From Acidimicrobiales bacterium (GTDB lineage: Bacteria > Actinomycetota > Acidimicrobiia > Acidimicrobiales > GCA-2861595), in assembly GCA_035540975.1 (NCBI GenBank), contig DATLFN010000146.1, positions 14,010-78,009 of the forward strand: DNA of 64,000 bases, given 5' to 3'. Every line of letters begins with the position of its first letter. Within the stretch, counting starts at the first letter, position 1. The notes beneath the pieces are model-generated. The model was not told the origin of the DNA, did not search any database, and worked only from the letters and a program-made list of their open reading frames with translations. The translations under genes were made by a program, and so were the position numbers. Shown one piece after another: positions 4,712 through 13,674 of the stretch.

Positions 4712-4966
4712 CCTCGCGCTGACGGTCGTCGAGGAGGGCACCGGGTTGGTTTCACCGGTGCCCTCCTCGGTCGGCCATGCGCGACAGCGATCCGCCGGGC
4801 TGCCCCGGCCACGGCGACGGCTGGACTTCCCGGGGTTCGTCCGCGTGGCGGCGCGCCATCCCCCAATTGTCCGGAAGTTCACCACCGGTACGTCGCGGCG
4901 TCGATTCTCCGCTACCCGCGCTCCGTAGGGTCCGGATCGATCGGACCCGATGCAGACGGAGGCGTG

Positions 4967-6448
4967 ATGACAGGGATGGACCGGCGGTCGTTTCTGAGCC
5001 GCGGCGCGGCTTTGGCCGGAGGAAGCCTGCTGGCGTCGGGCTCGCTGCAGACCCTCACCGCCCGACTGGCGGGCGCCACCCCCGGCGCCGCCCCGGGCCA
5101 GGAGAGGAAGGGCGGCTACGGGCGGCTGCGGCCGGTGGCGGCCGAGAACGAGCGGGGAGGCTTTGCCCACCTGGCGCTTCCCGACGGGTTCGGCTACGTG
5201 GTGCTGTCGCGCATCGGCGATCCCATGAGCGACGGGAACGTGACGCCCGCCCAGCTCGACGGCATGGCCGCCTTCTCCGGCCCCGGTGGGACGGTGCGCC
5301 TCATCCGCAACCACGAGATCCGTTCCGCCGGCCAGGTGCAGGTGGGCGGGCCGGTGGGGACCCGCTACGACGCCGCCGCCGGCGGCGGCACCACCACCCT
5401 CGACTACGACCCGCACCGGCGGCAGCTGGTGCGCGACTTCGTGAGCCTGAACGGCACGGTCGTCAACTGCGCGGGCGGCAAGGGCCTGGGCGATCGCAGC
5501 TGGATCACCGGCGAGGAGATCATCACCACCATCGGGGGCAGGAAGCACGGCTACAACTTCGAGGTCCCCCTCGCCCGCAGCGGCCCGGCGCTCACCCAGC
5601 CCCTCGTGGCCATGGGTCGCTTCGCCCACGAGGCGGTGGCCACCGATCCGGCGTCGGGGATCGTCTACCAGACCGAGGACGCCGGCTCGGGACGGGGCAG
5701 CGGCTTCTATCGCTACCTGCCCGACAGCCCCACCGACCTGCTGGCCGGCGGCCGACTCCAGATGCTGGCCGTGACCGGCCGGCCCAAGGCGGACCTGCGC
5801 GACGGCGAGTCGCCCGGTGCCGCCATGGCCGTCACCTGGGTCGAGATCGAGGCTCCGGACGCCAACCCGCTGACCGCCACCAACGCCGACGGCCTGGCCT
5901 CGGGCACCAGCGGCCCCTTCGCCGAGGGCTACGCCAAGGGGGGCGCCAAGTTCAACCGCCTGGAGGGCATCTGGTACGGCGACGGCAGCATCTTCTTCGC
6001 TTCCACCAGCGGCGGCGACGCCAAGAGCCCGGAGGCACCCAACTCCGACGGGTACCGCGAGGGCTACGGCCAGATCTGGGAGTTCCGGCCCCGGTCCGGC
6101 CAGCTGGTGCTGCTCTACCAGTCGCCCGGGGCCGACGTCCTCGACTCGCCCGACAACCTGGTCGTCACCCCCCGCGGCGGGCTGTTGTTGTGCGAGGACG
6201 ACGCCTCCAGCGACGGCGACACCCACCCGCTCGCCCCCGGCATCGCCGACGTCAACCGCCTGGTGGGCCTCACCCGCTCGGGCGAGGCCTTCGAGTTCGC
6301 CGTCAACCGCTTCAACGACAGCGAGCTGGCCGGTGCCTGCTTCTCACCCGACGGCAGGACCCTGTTCGTGAACATCTTCGGCGACGGCACGGCCGGCAGC
6401 GGGATGACGGTGGCCATCCGCGGTCCGTGGGCCCGGGGTGCCCTGTAG
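4967..6448 (+). CDS. phoX: PhoX-like (DUF839) Tat-exported phosphatase
   Basis: GGAGG lies 5 nt before ATG 4967. Twin-arginine leader MTGMDRRSFLSRGAALAGG. Beta-propeller-type body with NHE, GGTTTL, NCAGG, FEV, FAHEA, and PDN...EDD motifs as recalled for the PhoX/DUF839 family. Confidence 0.85.
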   Translation: MTGMDRRSFLSRGAALAGGSLLASGSLQTLTARLAGATPGAAPGQERKGGYGRLRPVAAENERGGFAHLALPDGFGYVVLSRIGDPMSDGNVTPAQLDGMAAFSGPGGTVRLIRNHEIRSAGQVQVGGPVGTRYDAAAGGGTTTLDYDPHRRQLVRDFVSLNGTVVNCAGGKGLGDRSWITGEEIITTIGGRKHGYNFEVPLARSGPALTQPLVAMGRFAHEAVATDPASGIVYQTEDAGSGRGSGFYRYLPDSPTDLLAGGRLQMLAVTGRPKADLRDGESPGAAMAVTWVEIEAPDANPLTATNADGLASGTSGPFAEGYAKGGAKFNRLEGIWYGDGSIFFASTSGGDAKSPEAPNSDGYREGYGQIWEFRPRSGQLVLLYQSPGADVLDSPDNLVVTPRGGLLLCEDDASSDGDTHPLAPGIADVNRLVGLTRSGEAFEFAVNRFNDSELAGACFSPDGRTLFVNIFGDGTAGSGMTVAIRGPWARGAL

Positions 6449-6525: not shown

Positions 6526-6843
6526 ATGACGGTTGATACGGAGATCGAGGCCGTGGCCGCCCTGCGGGCGCTGAGCGAGCCCCTGCGGTGGCGGATCGTC
6601 GAGCTGCTGGCCGTCGAGGAGCTGTGCGTGTGCCACATCGTCGAGGAGCTGGAGGTGGCGCAGCCTTTGGTGAGCCACCACCTGCGCGTCCTGCGCGACG
6701 CCGGGCTGGTCGATACGGAGCGCTACCGCTACTGGACCTACTACCGCCTGCGCCCCGGCGCGCTGGCGCCCCTCCGGGACCGCCTGGAGCGCCTGGTCTC
6801 GCCGCCGCCTGCGCCCGGTGAGCGCCGTCGGCCGTGCTGTTGA
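6526..6843 (+). CDS. arsR: ArsR/SmtB-family metalloregulator
   Basis: LSEPLRWRIVELLAVEELCVCHIVEELEVAQPLVSHHLRVLRDAGLV: classic ArsR HTH with ELCVC metal/arsenite site. First gene of a three-gene unit. Confidence 0.9.
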   Translation: MTVDTEIEAVAALRALSEPLRWRIVELLAVEELCVCHIVEELEVAQPLVSHHLRVLRDAGLVDTERYRYWTYYRLRPGALAPLRDRLERLVSPPPAPGERRRPCC

Positions 6844-6844
6844 G

Positions 6845-7636
6845 ATGACGCAGGCCCGCCCGGACCTCTGGCGGCGCCTGCTGGCCGAGTACGTCGGCAC
6901 CGGCTTCCTGGTCGCCGTGGTGGTCGGCTCCGGCATCGCCGCCCAGAGGCTGAGCCCTTCCGATGTCGGACTGCAGCTGTTCGAGAACGCGGCCGCCACC
7001 GCCGCTGCCCTCGCGGCCCTGATCGTGGCCCTCGGGCCGGTGTCCGGAGCCCACTTCAACCCGGTGGTGTCGATCGCCGACGCCGCCTTCGGCGGCCTGG
7101 CGCGTCGCGAGGTCGCCTCCTACCTCGCCGCCCAGCTGGCCGGCGCCGTCAGCGGGTCGATGGTGGCGAACCTGATGTTCGAGCTGCCGGCGGTGGAGTG
7201 GTCGACCACCGGTCGGTCCGGCTCCGGGTTGTGGCTGGCCGAAGTGGTGGCCACCCTCGGGCTGCTGGTCGTGATCTTCGGCGTGGTGCGCTCGGGGCGG
7301 GTGGGCGCGGCGCCATTCGCCGTGGGCGCCTACATCGGCGCTGCGTACTTCTTCACCGCCTCGACCAGCTTCGCCAACCCGGCGGTGTCCGTCGGGCGCA
7401 TGTTCACCGACACGTTCGCCGGCATCGCCCCGTCCTCGGTGCCGGCCTTCGTCGCCTTCCAGCTCGTCGGCGGTGCGGTGGCCGTGTTGACGGTGCGAGC
7501 GCTGTACCCCGGCCTCGCCGCCGTGGCCACCGATGTGGTGGTGCCCGGTGTCGACCAGCCATCCGGAACTGGCGGGCGGGCCAACGGTGGTGCGCCGCCG
7601 CCCGCACGTTCCACCCGAGGAGGTCCGTCGTCGTGA
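6845..7636 (+). CDS. MIP-family aquaglyceroporin (putative arsenite channel)
   Basis: Six hydrophobic segments. Two half-helix boxes: HFNPVVS (NPV variant) and FANPAVS (NPA). Start taken at MTQARPD (ATG 6845), just after the arsR stop. Stop overlaps the arsC start. Confidence 0.85.
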   Translation: MTQARPDLWRRLLAEYVGTGFLVAVVVGSGIAAQRLSPSDVGLQLFENAAATAAALAALIVALGPVSGAHFNPVVSIADAAFGGLARREVASYLAAQLAGAVSGSMVANLMFELPAVEWSTTGRSGSGLWLAEVVATLGLLVVIFGVVRSGRVGAAPFAVGAYIGAAYFFTASTSFANPAVSVGRMFTDTFAGIAPSSVPAFVAFQLVGGAVAVLTVRALYPGLAAVATDVVVPGVDQPSGTGGRANGGAPPPARSTRGGPSS

Positions 7637-8271
7637 CCGAGACCCGCGAACCGAGCGAAGCGTTGTCAGCCATCGCCGGAGAGATGTGCGCCGAGTTCCG
7701 CGGTGTGTTCAGCGCCCAGACGGTCGAGCGGTTCGTGTTCCAGAGCTACCGCGATCTCGCCCGCACCTCCAACGTCCACACCTACCTCAGTGTTCTCACC
7801 CGCAAGTTCGCCCGTGAGCGCCTCCGGGCGCTCGGACAGCTGGAAGGATCGTTCATGAAGGACGTGCCCGAGGTCCTGTTCGTCTGCGTCCACAATGCCG
7901 GCCGCTCGCAGGCGGCCATGGCCCTGCTCGACCACCACGCCCAGGGCCGCGTCCACGTCCGCTCCGCCGGCTCGGCCCCGGGGGAGAAGGTGAACGAGGC
8001 GGTGGTGGCCGTCCTGGCCGAGCGCGGCATCGACATCGCCACCGAGTACCCCAAGCCCTTGACCGACGAGGTCGTACGGGCGGCCGACGTGGTGGTGACG
8101 ATGGGCTGTGGCGACGCCTGCCCCATCTATCCCGGCAAGCGGTACCTCGACTGGCAGCTCGACGACCCCGCCGGGCGCAGCGTCGACGCGGTGCGGCCCA
8201 TCATCGACGAGATCGACGCCCGGGTCCGAGCCCTGCTGGAGGAGCTCGTGTCCACTCCTGCGTCGCCGTGA
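7633..8271 (+). CDS. arsC: LMW-PTP-type arsenate reductase with ~75-aa N-terminal helical extension
   Basis: GTG 7633 overlaps the upstream stop. Core VLFVCVHNAGRSQAAMAL (CX5R P-loop) plus DVVVTMGCGDACP (redox Cys pair) plus DWQLDDP. Confidence 0.85.
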   Translation: MTETREPSEALSAIAGEMCAEFRGVFSAQTVERFVFQSYRDLARTSNVHTYLSVLTRKFARERLRALGQLEGSFMKDVPEVLFVCVHNAGRSQAAMALLDHHAQGRVHVRSAGSAPGEKVNEAVVAVLAERGIDIATEYPKPLTDEVVRAADVVVTMGCGDACPIYPGKRYLDWQLDDPAGRSVDAVRPIIDEIDARVRALLEELVSTPASP

Positions 8272-8544
8272 CTCAGCGCCGGCGGGAGATCCGGACTGAG
8301 GCAGATGGCTGCACCGGTCGCAGGTGCCGCCAGTCCAGGCCGAGATCGCCCACGGCTCGACGATGCGGACCCTTCGCGTCGGAAGGCCGGTCGGCCACAG
8401 GTTTGACCCTGCTCCTGGGATCGCCGCCCGACGGGAGGACCGGGCGGCACGGCCCGTTCTCCAGAGCAATAATGCCCTCGAGCCGGCGCGCGATCCTCAT
8501 CGAGGGATCACGTTCGGGCGGTCCGAAGGAGGCCGACAGAGGCG

Positions 8545-9507
8545 ATGCGACCCACCAAGGAGATCGAGGTTCTCACGGTCGCGGCCGTCCGCGAGCCACG
8601 GGAGGGCAGCCAGGCGATCGAGTGCCTCTTCAACGAGCGCCAGCAGATCTTCTCGGTCACCGGGCAGGCGAAGCGGCGCGACGCCGTGGTCGATGCTCTG
8701 CGGGAGGCACTCGACCGCGGCGCTCCTGTGCGGGCGGTGCTGAACCCTCGGAGGGGGGTCGTCGAGCGGGCCGAACCGCCTGACGAGGGAGAGCGGCGGG
8801 AGTTCCACGCGGCGCGCCCGCTCCTCGACAACCCCGACCGGGCCAGACGCATCCACGTCCCGTCCGTCGACCCGACGACGTTCAACATCGTCGACTACTA
8901 CCTGGACTTCCCCGCGTTCAAGCTCTGTCGCCGCACCATTCCGAGCTACAAGGTCGCCAGGGAGATCTTCGGCTTCTGCGCGGCGCAGTCCTGCCACCTG
9001 CCGGGGCCGCCGGCCATCTCGCACTGCATCCCGTTCCAGTACGTTCGGGACGGCTGCTACGCCCGTGCCCACAAGATGCGGCAGATCATCGAAGAGCAGT
9101 ACCGGTTCTGCTGCGAGAAGGTCTTCAGCTTCGCCAACCAGGACAACGACACCCTCGCCGTCAGGGCTGGCAAGTGGGGAGGCTGCTGCGTCACGTGGTG
9201 GTACCACGTCGCCCCGCTCGTCCGCGTCCGGGTCAGGATCAAGCTCCCGTTCGGGACGTTCGAGCTCACGCTGGCGATGGTCATCGACCCGGGCATGTTC
9301 GACAAGCCGGTGCTGCTCAGCACCTGGCTGTCGGCCCAGGAGTACACCGCGTGTGCCAGCAACGCGAACCTGTCGATGTACTCGGTCCAGCCCGGCTCCG
9401 CCTACACGCCGGCGAACTACGCAGGCACGCTCTTCGCCACGGACCCCACGTACGCTCAGACGCACACCACCTTGACGAACTATCAGAACCTGACGACATG
9501 CCCGTGA
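8545..9507 (+). CDS. Leaderless protein-glutamine glutaminase-like protein (papain-like Cys-His-Asp) with N-terminal accessory domain
   Basis: GAAGGAGG lies upstream of ATG 8545. YVRDGCYARAHKMRQI (Cys171, TGC 9055-9057), CCVTWWYHVAP and MVIDPG match the catalytic Cys/His/Asp blocks of Chryseobacterium protein-glutaminase as I recall them. No signal peptide. Confidence 0.8.
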   Translation: MRPTKEIEVLTVAAVREPREGSQAIECLFNERQQIFSVTGQAKRRDAVVDALREALDRGAPVRAVLNPRRGVVERAEPPDEGERREFHAARPLLDNPDRARRIHVPSVDPTTFNIVDYYLDFPAFKLCRRTIPSYKVAREIFGFCAAQSCHLPGPPAISHCIPFQYVRDGCYARAHKMRQIIEEQYRFCCEKVFSFANQDNDTLAVRAGKWGGCCVTWWYHVAPLVRVRVRIKLPFGTFELTLAMVIDPGMFDKPVLLSTWLSAQEYTACASNANLSMYSVQPGSAYTPANYAGTLFATDPTYAQTHTTLTNYQNLTTCP

Positions 9508-9520
9508 GGCAACGGACGCG

Positions 9521-9784
9521 ATGGAACGAGCCGAGCCGCATCAACACGAGGGGCCAGCCGACCGCGATCTGACTGTCGCCCGAATCCGGACACGGGACGG
9601 CGCCGACCACGTCGAGGTCCTCTTCCTGGAGTCGGCGCGCATCTACCGGCTCCCGAACGACTGTCCGGGCTTCGACCAGCTCCTCCGGAGCCTGCGCGAC
9701 GCGGAGGCCTCGCGACAGCCTGTGCGAGTGGCACTCGCCTCCCCCTACAGCGAGATCATCCGCGACGTGGTCGCAAGTTCCTGA
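9521..9784 (+). CDS. Small protein paralogous to the N-terminal domain of the upstream glutaminase-like protein
   Basis: Starts 14 nt after the upstream stop. LTVARIRTRDGADHVEVLFLESARIYRL...DQLLRSLRDAEASRQPVRVAL is collinear with LTVAAVREPREGSQAIECLFNERQQIFSV...DAVVDALREALDRGAPVRAVL of ORF 8545. Confidence 0.55.
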   Translation: MERAEPHQHEGPADRDLTVARIRTRDGADHVEVLFLESARIYRLPNDCPGFDQLLRSLRDAEASRQPVRVALASPYSEIIRDVVASS

Positions 9785-9816
9785 GCGAACGGAGCTCGGC
9801 TCGCACGTCGACAGCC

Positions 9817-12800
9817 CTACTCCTTGTCGACCACCGCGACGCTCGCGAAGTCCTTGCGAACGAACCGGGTGTTGCAGGTAGGGCTGAAACCGGTCGCCGT
9901 CACGGTGACGGAGTAGCTGCCGGGGACCTTCGTCCGCGCGTAGCGACCGGTCAGGACGCCGACCTGCCTGGGACGCAGCACGAGCCGTGGGTCGATCACC
10001 GCGACGCGGCCGGGGCCCACGCCGGTCGCCCCGCCCGCTCCGCCGCCGATCGGCGTGCCGGTGCTGGCGCCCGAGCCGCCCCCGCCCACGACGGGGCCCG
10101 GAATCCGGCCGCCGCCGGCGACCGTCGACGCTTCGAGTCGCGGCGCGAGCCCCGAGGGCGTCGCGGCGAATTTGGGCAGACGCGTCGGCTTGAGCGTCGT
10201 GGCACCGAGTGCGAGCTCGTCGATCCGCGGCGCGAGGATGTCGTCGCCCTTGGCGGCCACCAGCTGATCCCGCAGCAGTACGAGCTGAGCGAGGTGCATG
10301 CGTGCCTTGTCGGGTTTGCCATCGGCGACGAAGTCCCGTGGCAGCTTGATGCGCGAAAGCCTCCCACGGTACTTGTCGATGAGGTCTGCACTCGACGCGA
10401 CGGGAGCGGCAACCGCGGCCCGGACCTTGGCGCCGTCGATGCCGCCGCGACGGTCGCCGACCGACGTCTTCACGCCGATGACGTCGCCGACGCGGACGAG
10501 CGTCGGAACGTCGAGCACCAGCTTGAGCGGCGAGCGGACGAAGCCGCCGACGGTGTAGGGCGTGTGCTGATGACGGTCGGTGGCGACTTCGATCGTCCAC
10601 AGTCCCGGCTCAGGGTCCTGGATCGTGAAGCTGACATAGCCGTCGCCGGCATTGCGCACGAACTCGGTCGCCGACCGAGGCAGCCAACGGCCGCCGGGCG
10701 AGCGCAGCCGCACCCCGATCTCGCCCGCGCCCTTCGGAGCCCGTGGGACGTACCGCAGTGACCGGTCGTGCCACGCGACGGTGAACAGCACCGACTCGGC
10801 GCATCCGTCGACCCAGCCCGACACGTGCGACACCGACGCCGCCGACGACTCGTTGACGATGACGCCGTCACCCGTCACCTGGCCTCGGATGTAGTTGTAG
10901 ATCTCGAACAGATCGTCGATCGTCGGCATGAAGTAGTACCGGCCGTCGGTGTCGTCTGCCAGCTGTGCGAGCAGGGTCTGGTCCGATGCCGGGCCCATTG
11001 CGCAGCTGTAGATCGGCAGGTCCGCGGGGAGCGCCGCCGCGGCGTCGACCGCCCACGGCTTGGCCGGGTTGCCCTCGTCGCAGCCCTTGTTGTCGTACCC
11101 GTCGGAAAGGAGCACCAAGGCCCGGCGGGAGCCGGCGCCGGCGAGCATGCCGCCCGCCTCCTGGATGCCAGCGCCCATGAAGGTGCAACCGCCGAACCCG
11201 ATGCCGTCGACCGCGGCGGTGGCGGCATCCCTCGTCGACTGGTCCACGATCTGCTGGGGAGCGCCCGTTCCTGGATACTCCTCATCGCCCGAGTCACCGA
11301 AGCTCACCACCCCGATGGAGTCGTCGACGCCCATGAGGTCGATGAACTGCCGAGACGTCTGCCTCGTGACGTCGACGTATCCGAAGACCTGCATCGAGCC
11401 CGACCGGTCGAGCACGGTTACGACGCTGACCGGGTCGGCCGCAGGCACCTCGGCGTTGTCGATCACCAGGGCGAAGTCCTGCCAGGTTCCGGCGATGTCG
11501 GTACGAGCGGATGCTGCGACGTTGGCCGCGACGACGGTGACCTCGTACACCCCAGTGGGGTTCTGGATGACGGCGACCTCGGTGTTGTTGAGGTCGTCGG
11601 CGACTCCGCCGGTCGTCGAGAACGCGCCCGCGAACACGTTGCCGCGGAACAGCTGGCCCGTGTCGACGTGACGGACCTCGAGATCGAGGTCGTTCACGAG
11701 CGCGGGGTTTGCGCCGACGGCGCCCGCGGCATCCGACCACGACAGCGCGACGCGCAGGGGGAGCGTGGCATCGGCGGCGGCCACGCGGATCGTGTACTCC
11801 TGGCCCGTCGCCGAGAACGCCTGCCGCTGATCGACGAAGATCTTGGGCCCACGGTCGGCGGCGGGCGCCTGGAGCAGCGCGTTCTCGACCGAGACGCGAC
11901 CCCAGCCGACGTTGTTGTTCGGACCGGCGGCGATCGCCCCGCCGGCGCCGTCCGTGCCCCCGGCGACCGGCTCGGTGCTCGAGACCATCAACGCCTTGAG
12001 TAGCGCGGGGCTCGGCGTCTTGCCGTTGCGGGTCTGGCGCCACCAGTCGATCAGCAGCGCGGCACTGCCCGCCACGTGCGGTGACGCCATCGACGTCCCC
12101 GACATGGGCGCGTGGACCGGGTGCAGCGTGCCGCCCGTGTCGGTGTAGGGCCCGCTGCGGAACCCCACGGGGCTGTAGGTCGAGATGATGTCGGTCCCCG
12201 GTGCGACGACGGTCGGCAGCATCCGGCCATCGGTCGCAGGACCACGCGACGAGCCCGTCGCGAGCCCGCGGATGTCGTCGTTCGGGTTCATCTCGCCCGG
12301 GCGCCCGTTCAGCGAGTTGCCCACGAGGATCGCGTTCTTCGGGTTCTTCGTGACCGTGCCGGGGCCCGAGCCGCTGTTCCCGGCGGAGAAGACGATGACG
12401 AGCGGCGTCTGGTCGGTGGCGGTCGGGTCGGCGTCGCGGACGCCCAGGTCGACGGTGCGATCGTCGGCGGAGTAGTTCGGGCCGTTCATCGCCCACGAGT
12501 TGTTCATGACGTCGGCACCCTGGAGCGCCGCCTGCTGCACCCGCGCGGCGACCGTTCCACCCAGCGCGATGAGCCCCACATCGGCGCTGGGCGCCACACC
12601 CTGCCCGAGCAGGAACCCCTGCGGGTCGACGTCGCTCGAGTCGCCGTCGCCCGCGACGATGCCGGCGACATGGGTGCCGTGCCCGTCCGTGTCGGCGCCG
12701 ACGACAGCCGCGCCTGCGGAGTCGACGACGAACGCGAGCCGGCCGGCGAGATCGGCGTGGACCGTCATGGGATCGTTGGTGTCGATGCCGGTGTCGCACA

Positions 12801-13674
12801 CCGCGACCGTGACGCCGTTCCCGTTGACTCCGAGCGCCGTCAGGTTGGCGGCGTACCCCGTGTTCGGCAGCGTGTTGGGCGCCGCCGCGGCGTCGAGGTC
12901 TTCCATGACGATCTGCGAACTGCGCTCGTCCTCGAGCACGGGCGCATGCACGGCGTCGATCCAGCGCACGTCGTCATGGGCGGCGAGCGTCGGCAGCGCC
13001 TCGGTGGGCACCTGCGCGGTGACGCTCCGGAACGCGTCGAGCGACTCGGGTGCGACGGCCAGCACGTTCCCGCCGAGCGTGATCACGAGCGTCGCAACAC
13101 CGTCGACGTCGCCCTCGGCGAATACGCCGATGTCTACCGCCTCGATGGGCCCGAGGCCGAGATCGGTGCCGGCCTCCGGATCACCGCTCAGCAGCTCCGG
13201 GTTGACCTTGAGGGCCGGCGCCAGCGGGCCCGTCCACTCGACGAAGGGGAGCGTGGTGGCGGATGCCACCGTCTCGGCGTCGGCGCGCACGTAGTACGCG
13301 TGCGGGCTGACCGCTTCGACGAGCCGGATGCCCCGCTCGGCGAGTGTCGCGAGCCACGACTCCTGAACCGGGCCGACGAGCTGGATCAGGTGGTTCACGC
13401 CGTCGGCGGCTTCGACACCTGCGAAGCCGGGCGGCGTCGGGGGGAGTCCCCCTTCGGCGGTGTCGATCTCGTAGGTGAAGAGCCGGATGGTGTGCGGGTC
13501 GCGCACGGCTTTGACACGCCACCCCGCATTCTCGAGGCGCTCGACCTGAGACTCATCGGCGTCGACGACGAAGCCGCGGTCCAGCGCACTCACGACGCCG
13601 ACGCCGACGACGTCGGCTTCGACGATCGGTCTGTCGACCGCGGTGCGGTGGGTGATGACATAGCGTTCCGACAT
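9817..13674 (-). CDS. 1285-aa subtilase (S8) - vWA fusion protein with tandem I9-like prodomains, no signal peptide
   Basis: Triad blocks VAVCDTGID, DGHGTHVAGIVAG, MSGTSMASPHVAGSAALL (Ser codon near 12090). Then a beta-sandwich, then vWA with MIDAS VLDRSGSM (about 11392-11418) and LLSDGYDN. C-terminal Ig-like region with a Gly-rich linker. The N-terminus MSERYVITHRTAVDRP is not signal-like. Confidence 0.9.
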   Translation of the reverse strand: MSERYVITHRTAVDRPIVEADVVGVGVVSALDRGFVVDADESQVERLENAGWRVKAVRDPHTIRLFTYEIDTAEGGLPPTPPGFAGVEAADGVNHLIQLVGPVQESWLATLAERGIRLVEAVSPHAYYVRADAETVASATTLPFVEWTGPLAPALKVNPELLSGDPEAGTDLGLGPIEAVDIGVFAEGDVDGVATLVITLGGNVLAVAPESLDAFRSVTAQVPTEALPTLAAHDDVRWIDAVHAPVLEDERSSQIVMEDLDAAAAPNTLPNTGYAANLTALGVNGNGVTVAVCDTGIDTNDPMTVHADLAGRLAFVVDSAGAAVVGADTDGHGTHVAGIVAGDGDSSDVDPQGFLLGQGVAPSADVGLIALGGTVAARVQQAALQGADVMNNSWAMNGPNYSADDRTVDLGVRDADPTATDQTPLVIVFSAGNSGSGPGTVTKNPKNAILVGNSLNGRPGEMNPNDDIRGLATGSSRGPATDGRMLPTVVAPGTDIISTYSPVGFRSGPYTDTGGTLHPVHAPMSGTSMASPHVAGSAALLIDWWRQTRNGKTPSPALLKALMVSSTEPVAGGTDGAGGAIAAGPNNNVGWGRVSVENALLQAPAADRGPKIFVDQRQAFSATGQEYTIRVAAADATLPLRVALSWSDAAGAVGANPALVNDLDLEVRHVDTGQLFRGNVFAGAFSTTGGVADDLNNTEVAVIQNPTGVYEVTVVAANVAASARTDIAGTWQDFALVIDNAEVPAADPVSVVTVLDRSGSMQVFGYVDVTRQTSRQFIDLMGVDDSIGVVSFGDSGDEEYPGTGAPQQIVDQSTRDAATAAVDGIGFGGCTFMGAGIQEAGGMLAGAGSRRALVLLSDGYDNKGCDEGNPAKPWAVDAAAALPADLPIYSCAMGPASDQTLLAQLADDTDGRYYFMPTIDDLFEIYNYIRGQVTGDGVIVNESSAASVSHVSGWVDGCAESVLFTVAWHDRSLRYVPRAPKGAGEIGVRLRSPGGRWLPRSATEFVRNAGDGYVSFTIQDPEPGLWTIEVATDRHQHTPYTVGGFVRSPLKLVLDVPTLVRVGDVIGVKTSVGDRRGGIDGAKVRAAVAAPVASSADLIDKYRGRLSRIKLPRDFVADGKPDKARMHLAQLVLLRDQLVAAKGDDILAPRIDELALGATTLKPTRLPKFAATPSGLAPRLEASTVAGGGRIPGPVVGGGGSGASTGTPIGGGAGGATGVGPGRVAVIDPRLVLRPRQVGVLTGRYARTKVPGSYSVTVTATGFSPTCNTRFVRKDFASVAVVDKE

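Follow-up and report, generated by a model that had tools for sequence, protein, structure and literature searches.

We analysed a high-GC window of 64,000 nucleotides from an Acidimicrobiales bacterium (contig DATLFN010000146.1) and focus here on two adjacent open reading frames (ORFs) on its plus strand. ORF A (8545..9507) encodes a leaderless member of the protein-glutaminase (PG) family, a predicted deamidase of 320 amino acids (aa) that has kept its pro-domain. ORF B (9521..9784) encodes 87 aa, a free-standing paralogue of that pro-domain. Our favoured explanation, to which we give a probability of roughly 0.55, is that the two genes form an operon for a cytoplasmic, zymogen-like deamidase (A) and a propeptide-like inhibitor that acts in trans (B) and is possibly a chaperone as well. 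An earlier inspection of the window, made without database searches (the sequence-only reading), had placed the two ORFs at these positions, and both exist.

ORF A is a PG family member with an intact catalytic triad and no leader. The Pfam family PF18626 (Gln_deamidase_2, cut-off 25 bits) matches aa 140-264 with E=1.5e-21 and 77 bits, a strong result for the profile search that the sequence-only reading had named as a test. The NCBIfam model NF040782, an equivalog model for the Chryseobacterium-type enzyme, scores 104.9 bits. Since about 105 bits fall below the 250 bits that this model requires, A belongs to the PG family but is not a Chryseobacterium-type equivalog. In the PDB, the pro-PG entries 3a54 and 3a56 match ORF A alone at E ~1e-21 and a family profile of A at E=3e-31 with the triad aligned; protein-glutaminases are the only significant matches. 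Identity to Chryseobacterium-type PG is about 26-35%.

The catalytic domain, delimited by the Pfam, PDB and family alignments, spans aa 131-320 (8935..9504, plus strand). Its triad consists of C171, H221 and D248, whose codons we read at 9055-9057, 9205-9207 and 9286-9288 of the plus strand, and it aligns with C156, H197 and D217 of pro-PG (numbering after PMC13298967). In our family alignment of 142 sequences, H221 is invariant and C171 and D248 are each at least 90% conserved. Ten Cys residues are conserved in A, and seven of them are common to the secreted enzymes. The catalytic motifs and Cys-His-Asp triad of the Chryseobacterium enzyme, which had been recognized by eye, are therefore present.

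According to the ORF listing, the ATG at 8545 is the earliest possible start downstream of an in-frame stop, hence a signal peptide cannot be encoded upstream. This bears out the earlier claim that A carries none. An alternative upstream start is also absent from most orthologous loci, and in the structural model the first beta-strand begins at residue 6. A Shine-Dalgarno-like GAAGGAGG (8525..8532, plus strand) can be read 12 nt 5' of the start.

The first 90 aa of A (8545..8814, plus strand) form a domain homologous to the PG pro-region, as judged from a profile match and from secondary structure predicted with AlphaFold2 (AF2). Positions 19-89 of the family profile match pro-PG residues 34-103 with an independent E=2.4e-4. 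The AF2 runs give the domain three strands, a helix, two strands and a helix. A first run on an alignment of 14 sequences was usable for the N-domain and not for the catalytic domain (mean pLDDT 46.6); it was superseded by a run on the 142-sequence alignment, which reached a pLDDT of 96.7 and a pTM of 0.94. Foldseek matched this second model to 3a56 at E=5.7e-23 over 320 columns, and the top structural matches in the PDB are all pro-enzymes (3a56, 3a54 and 8z3i; 314-320 columns, TMt 0.77-0.80). The TMq of the model is 0.68 against pro-PG but only 0.48 against mature PG, which covers just the C-terminal part. Because A superposes over its full length on pro-enzymes, we conclude that it keeps the entire zymogen architecture minus the signal peptide. 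The profile match and the model thus identify the N-domain as a true homologue of the PG pro-region, modelled in the docked position that it has in the zymogen, and the sequence-only reading was right to presume a pro- or regulatory domain here. Pfam and NCBIfam contain no family that covers the N-domain.

Between the two domains lies a linker (aa 91-130; 8815..8934, plus strand) with invariant D109, P110, F113, N114 and C128. It is more conserved than the N-domain (0.63 vs. 0.51), and its end coincides with the start of mature PG, RRTIPSYK of A being aligned to ASVIPDVA.

The second gene resembles the N-domain of the first. BLASTP of aa 1-102 of A against B gives 35% identity over 57 aa with E=4e-7, in line with the collinearity and the one-third identity that had been estimated by eye. 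The matches are reciprocal at the level of hidden Markov models (HMMs): the B HMM finds the N-domains of many A orthologues (E from 1e-8 to 1e-2) and the A HMM finds B proteins. The homology between the N-domain and the small ORF, also named earlier as a test, is therefore significant. By these comparisons B is a paralogue of the N-domain of A, with a likeness beyond chance. A search of the PDB with the B profile returned the pro-region of 3a56 as second-best match with E=0.14, which is not significant alone; the match is collinear and we use it as support only. Together the alignments show B to be homologous to the PG pro-region, chiefly by way of its paralogy with the N-domain. B, too, is covered by no family in Pfam and NCBIfam, and it is 100% identical to an NCBI hypothetical protein from an Acidimicrobiales metagenome-assembled genome (MAG), the type of source from which the window comes as well.

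The arrangement of the two genes is compact. The stop codon of A (9505-9507) and the ATG of B are separated by 13 nt (9508..9520, plus strand; read from the sequence), and a GAGG at 9506-9509, read as a ribosome-binding site, overlaps the stop and lies 11 nt before the ATG. Promoter and terminator prediction over 8200-9900 found no sigma-70-like promoter and no intrinsic terminator, including between A and B. In orthologous loci the gap between the genes is typically short, or the genes overlap.

Selection has preserved B. It is 45-57% identical across phyla, and in most close pairs its ratio of nonsynonymous to synonymous substitution rates (dN/dS) is about 0.15-0.3, like that of the N-domain, as expected under purifying selection. 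The dN of B is two to four times that of the catalytic domain. We also considered diversifying selection on B and rejected it: the dN/dS of 0.75-0.97 between the window and one other locus (L005) turned out to be an outlier among 30 pairs.

The pairing itself is strongly conserved. We scanned 185,579 species genomes, one genome per species, which returned 69 loci, nearly all of them in MAGs. They come from more than 12 phyla, and A is 50-88% identical across them. The loci span Acidimicrobiales, Gaiellaceae, Nitrospiraceae, Rhodothermales, Thermoanaerobaculia, Acidobacteriota, Gemmatimonadota, Planctomycetota, Verrucomicrobiota, Proteobacteria, Chlorobiaceae, Cyanobacteria and Bacteroidota, as well as one Bathyarchaeia bin. 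B directly follows A on the same strand in about 64 of the 66 genome loci with enough downstream DNA, which answers the question of gene-pair conservation that the sequence-only reading had raised. One apparent exception (L066) has a divergent B. In another locus, from a Pyrinomonadaceae MAG (L031:4766-7815), about 2.9 kb including a 796-aa ORF separate A from a B-like ORF truncated where the contig stops. The pair is also present in all six metagenome contexts examined. No third gene proved to be conserved when flanking ORFs were clustered across loci. A and B make up a self-contained module.

A large protein database contains 1273 relatives of A. The best 120 of these are about 310-320 aa long, align over nearly their full length and are 60-92% identical; the few among them with a named source are spread over very different phyla. 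Such a patchy, cross-phylum and highly conserved distribution points to horizontal spread of the module.

Several single loci deserve mention. In a bin labelled Candidatus Bathyarchaeia archaeon (L039), A is 54% identical and B is present, which could reflect either a transfer into archaea or a binning error. In the Pyrinomonadaceae MAG, DNA may have been inserted between A and B, or the B-like ORF may belong to a second copy. Two MAGs carry two copies of the module on separate contigs (L038 and L041 in MFD02242.bin.1.340; L058 and L072 in SMAG_U1597). In four long-read MFD bins (L024, L047, L056 and L067) A is split across frames, probably through assembly frameshifts rather than as pseudogenes.

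The leaderless clade is a small part of the family. Clustering at 50% yields 966 representatives, of which the clade makes up about one, and most of the other full-length representatives have a signal peptide or a lipobox. Relatives from Bacteroidota and deltaproteobacteria (37-55% identity) carry lipoprotein-type signal peptides on both A and B. Signal-peptide relatives without the small ORF would have suggested an ordinary secreted pro-enzyme; relatives with a signal peptide occur, but the small ORF is retained in them and has a signal peptide of its own. Across loci the localization signals of the two proteins agree: 51 loci have none on either protein, ten have one on both (nine by script, and L064 by eye), and none is truly discordant.

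The same pairing occurs at a canonical Chryseobacterium PG locus, where a gene for a 103-aa lipoprotein lies 70 nt downstream of PG. A broad HMM built from 67 B sequences matches this lipoprotein at E=1.2e-7, with PG pro-regions as the next-best matches. Weaker comparisons are an hhalign of the narrow leaderless-B profile against the same ORF (E=0.008) and a BLASTP of the ORF against its own PG pro-region, which was non-significant. In one Chryseobacterium locus (L074:2693-3651) PG is called as two overlapping ORFs of 106 and 216 aa, which suggests that a frameshift or a sequencing error affects the pro-region. Beside the PG gene of C. proteolyticum, a small hypothetical gene co-transcribed with it has been described before, with a signal peptide of 22 aa followed by 80 aa, a predicted shared promoter and a guessed role in secretion (Qu et al. 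2018; PMC6132073). Its homology to the PG pro-region appears not to have been recognized earlier. On the evidence of these profile matches, the A-B pairing is ancestral to the whole PG family and older than the leaderless clade.

A distant subfamily (L076 and L077) is particularly informative. Its enzyme has a signal peptide and lacks a cis pro-domain, and the downstream gene is a homologue of B (E=4e-9 and 1.4e-6). With no cis pro-domain available, only the catalytic domain can be the partner of B in these loci. In both of them the B homologue is followed by another conserved small ORF, 82 aa long (L076:3565-3813 and L077:3514-3762), which has no signal peptide and belongs to no Pfam family.

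The place where A and B could touch the active site is a short loop. Two blocks are most conserved in both B and the N-domain: an LTVA strand and a loop of the form F-x-E-x-x-x-I-F/Y. In A the loop reads FNERQQIF (F29 to F36; 8629..8652, plus strand) and contains Q33 and Q34; in B it corresponds to FLESARIY (F35 to Y42; 9623..9646, plus strand), which is the best-conserved block of the protein. Q33 of A and A39 of B both align with residue 47 of pro-PG, which according to PDB entry titles and alignments is Ala in the wild type (3a56) and Gln in the A47Q mutant (3a54). In work by Hashizume and colleagues from 2011, the pro-PG loop around Ala47 is said to cover the catalytic cleft, and the A47Q side chain reportedly reacts with the catalytic Cys. 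Within the clade, 92% of 173 family members have Q (69%) or E (23%) at cis position 33, and the others have H (3%) or A (5%). In 78 B proteins, the corresponding position is Ala in 94%.

We propose the following mechanism. A would be a cytoplasmic enzyme of the papain/transglutaminase-like Cys-His-Asp type that converts protein-bound Gln to Glu. Its N-domain would dock on the catalytic domain, so that the FNE-R-Q/E-Q-IF loop lies over the active site and inhibits the enzyme in cis, with Gln or Glu placed in the cleft as a pseudo-substrate. B most likely binds the same cleft in trans through its Ala plug, a residue that is neither a substrate nor hydrolysable. It would act as inhibitor, and perhaps also help folding, at times when the cis domain has been displaced or processed, or where there is none. 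We infer both the binding and inhibition of the cleft by B and the role of the cis Gln as pseudo-substrate or self-substrate.

Biochemical work on PG makes such a scheme physically plausible. The cleaved propeptide stays on mature PG until it is washed off with 4 M urea, and it lowers the activity of PGB about 17-fold (PMC13139226). A free pro-domain could hence bind and inhibit in trans.

Some observations weigh against our proposal. Pro-domains are not always tight inhibitors, since the pro-PG of Bacteroides helcogenes is partly active (PMC13139226). Why B is needed would be left unexplained if the cleft is already occupied by the cis domain. Ten conserved Cys residues are odd for a cytoplasmic protein, and A may be exported by a non-classical route. 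That Q33 and A39 sit at the catalytic Cys is deduced from sequence alignment with pro-PG. Finally, when the wider family is considered, both cis domains and B show variation (A, P, Q, E, S and H) at the plug position. This variability rules out the contrast between Ala and Gln as a universal rule; it is a trait of the clade and not a law.

One could also argue that B is mainly a foldase or stabilizer of the catalytic domain that works in trans and does not regulate activity. In secreted proteases and transglutaminases, folding is commonly catalysed by the pro-region. In the distant subfamily B is the only pro-like protein, next to an enzyme without a cis pro-domain, and B is always found in the same compartment as A. 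The tight hold of the cleaved propeptide on mature PG (PMC13139226) would suit a stabilizer as well. However, in the leaderless clade A has its own cis pro-domain for that job. Moreover, B is most strongly constrained in the loop aligned with the active-site plug, where a non-substrate Ala suggests occupation of the cleft. We therefore consider it rather unlikely that folding is the main role of B, although the two roles are not exclusive.

A more speculative idea concerns the cis Gln. Gln33 could be a built-in self-substrate, whose conversion to Glu would be a one-shot, irreversible activation, with the Ala-plugged B as the sole brake. The new negative charge at the plug would be expelled from the acidic pocket, and lineages with Glu at the plug (23%) would encode the activated state from the outset. 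In this scenario the cytoplasmic module, having spread horizontally, would be a timed or triggered deamidase switch, possibly similar to a toxin-antitoxin system. Self-deamidation as an activation switch is speculation, and we think it quite improbable.

B could instead activate the enzyme or serve as an adaptor, by pairing or competing with the cis N-domain or by recruiting substrates, or it could itself be the physiological substrate. The paralogy of B and the N-domain would allow competition for one docking surface or the formation of a pseudo-dimer, and the two plugs, Gln or Glu in cis and Ala in B, are not equivalent. Yet there is no cis domain for B to displace in the distant subfamily, and an Ala plug in the cleft would block the enzyme rather than activate it. 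As a substrate B is an unlikely candidate because it has no conserved Gln. We regard this whole group of explanations as very improbable.

The sequence-only reading had likened the pair to either a toxin-immunity or a zymogen-inhibitor arrangement. The second likeness fits our results; the first fares poorly. If the pair were a selfish toxin-antitoxin or toxin-immunity module, A would be a cytotoxic protein deamidase and B its antitoxin, and the module would spread by horizontal transfer. A compact two-gene cassette without conserved neighbours would suit such a module, as would its sparse distribution over more than 12 phyla including an archaeal MAG. GC content dips as well, to 0.655-0.67 at 8800-9800 compared to 0.69-0.745 in the flanks; the lower GC content noted earlier is thus real but modest. 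One locus adjoins a HigB/HigA-like pair. Furthermore, one protein of 3491 aa (P0254) contains a PG-like domain, with PG-like segments at residues 2199-2275 in three matched stretches, and has an N-terminus like those of WXG/LXG-type secreted actinobacterial toxins. The deamidase fold may hence also be used as a polymorphic-toxin module.

Against a toxin, Pfam and NCBIfam show no DNA-binding or known antitoxin domain in B, and A has no delivery domain, its N-terminus being the pro-domain. Where relatives are exported, a signal peptide is present on either protein, which sets these pairs apart from effector-immunity systems. The pairing also accompanies the non-toxic, nutritionally used Chryseobacterium enzyme, and B is under ordinary purifying selection. 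Nor is there a defence or mobile context: PADLOC returned only noise for A and nothing for B, and tblastn found no match in phages and one distant match in plasmids. Six annotated metagenome neighbourhoods consist of ordinary metabolic genes and vary between loci. Toxin-antitoxin and effector-immunity interpretations of the pair are therefore disfavoured, and we would be surprised if either were correct.

We return to an inhibited deamidase and its trans-acting partner, and to how they compare with known systems. The closest enzymes are the pre-pro PG of Chryseobacterium proteolyticum (EC 3.5.1.44; PDB 3A56, 3A54 and 2ZK9) and its relatives from Flavobacterium and Bacteroides (8Z3I, PGB). A shares with pre-pro PG the fold, the triad, a homologous pro-domain in the same modelled pose, Cys residues and a small, pro-domain-like gene downstream. 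It differs in that both A and B lack a signal peptide, that the cis plug is Gln or Glu and not Ala, and that the linker is highly conserved and has three extra invariant Cys residues. In addition, the leaderless clade is tightly conserved across many phyla and not confined to Bacteroidota.

The closest architecture is that of SpeB and Spi from Streptococcus pyogenes, where a propeptide-analogue inhibitor is encoded beside the gene of a papain-like cysteine protease (PMC2873492). In both cases a papain-like Cys enzyme with a pro-domain has an adjacent, co-directional partner gene that is homologous to the propeptide. A is a side-chain deamidase and not a peptidase, however, and inhibition by B is here inferred. 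The pair of staphopain and staphostatin is a looser parallel, and Bfp-Bfi can also be likened to A-B. Spi and the staphostatins protect the cytoplasm from enzymes that are exported, whereas B is always in the enzyme's own compartment. We reject a staphostatin-like role for B as cytoplasmic guard of a secreted enzyme, since A and B either both carry a signal peptide or both lack one.

Similar principles are known from further afield. In MEROPS families I9 (yeast PBI2) and I29 (CTLA-2, BCPI), duplicated pro-domains have turned into independent inhibitors of the mature enzyme. Unlike B, these free inhibitors are eukaryotic, unlinked to the enzyme gene and directed at proteases. In Bacillus, the intracellular subtilisin proteases (ISP) form a branch without leaders, located in the cytoplasm, of a pro-enzyme family that is otherwise secreted; an N-terminal extension blocks their active site and keeps them inactive. 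ISPs differ from A-B in fold and chemistry and have no separate paralogous partner gene. The suggestion that the A-B architecture is undescribed holds in so far as the homology appears to have gone unrecognized; the small gene itself had been noted in 2018 (PMC6132073), and among cysteine proteases SpeB-Spi is a direct precedent (PMC2873492).

PG is a commercial food enzyme, and no characterization seems to exist of the conserved, dedicated gene that partners it. If B is an inhibitor or a foldase, this would bear on how PG is produced recombinantly, activated and controlled. The leaderless clade implies that PG-type enzymes probably also work within the cell, among uncultured bacteria of soil and sediment that belong to at least a dozen phyla. 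Its unusual conservation implies a specific intracellular function in protein deamidation. The A-B pair would extend the principle of a propeptide turned free inhibitor from cysteine and serine proteases to a non-proteolytic papain-like enzyme, and to a cytoplasmic form of it. The Gln or Glu plug in cis and the Ala plug in trans also provide a testable model of zymogen control by self-deamidation.

The pair has varied neighbours in the window. A 1285-aa subtilase (Peptidase_S8) with a C-terminal VWA domain is encoded on the minus strand (9817-13674); it converges on ORF B and ends 33 nt past the stop of B. A PhoX alkaline phosphatase lies upstream on the plus strand (4964-6448). According to the clustering of flanking ORFs, neither the subtilase nor PhoX is conserved beside the pair elsewhere. 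Just upstream of ORF A the translations suggest an arsenic-resistance operon (6526-8271, plus strand). Its first ORF (6526-6843) encodes an ArsR/SmtB-like helix-turn-helix protein in which ELCVC is found, and the second (6818-7636) an MIP/aquaporin-like protein containing two NPV/NPA motifs. A further ORF, which ends at 8271, has the CX5R motif of low-molecular-weight phosphatases and ArsC-type proteins (VCVHNAGRS).

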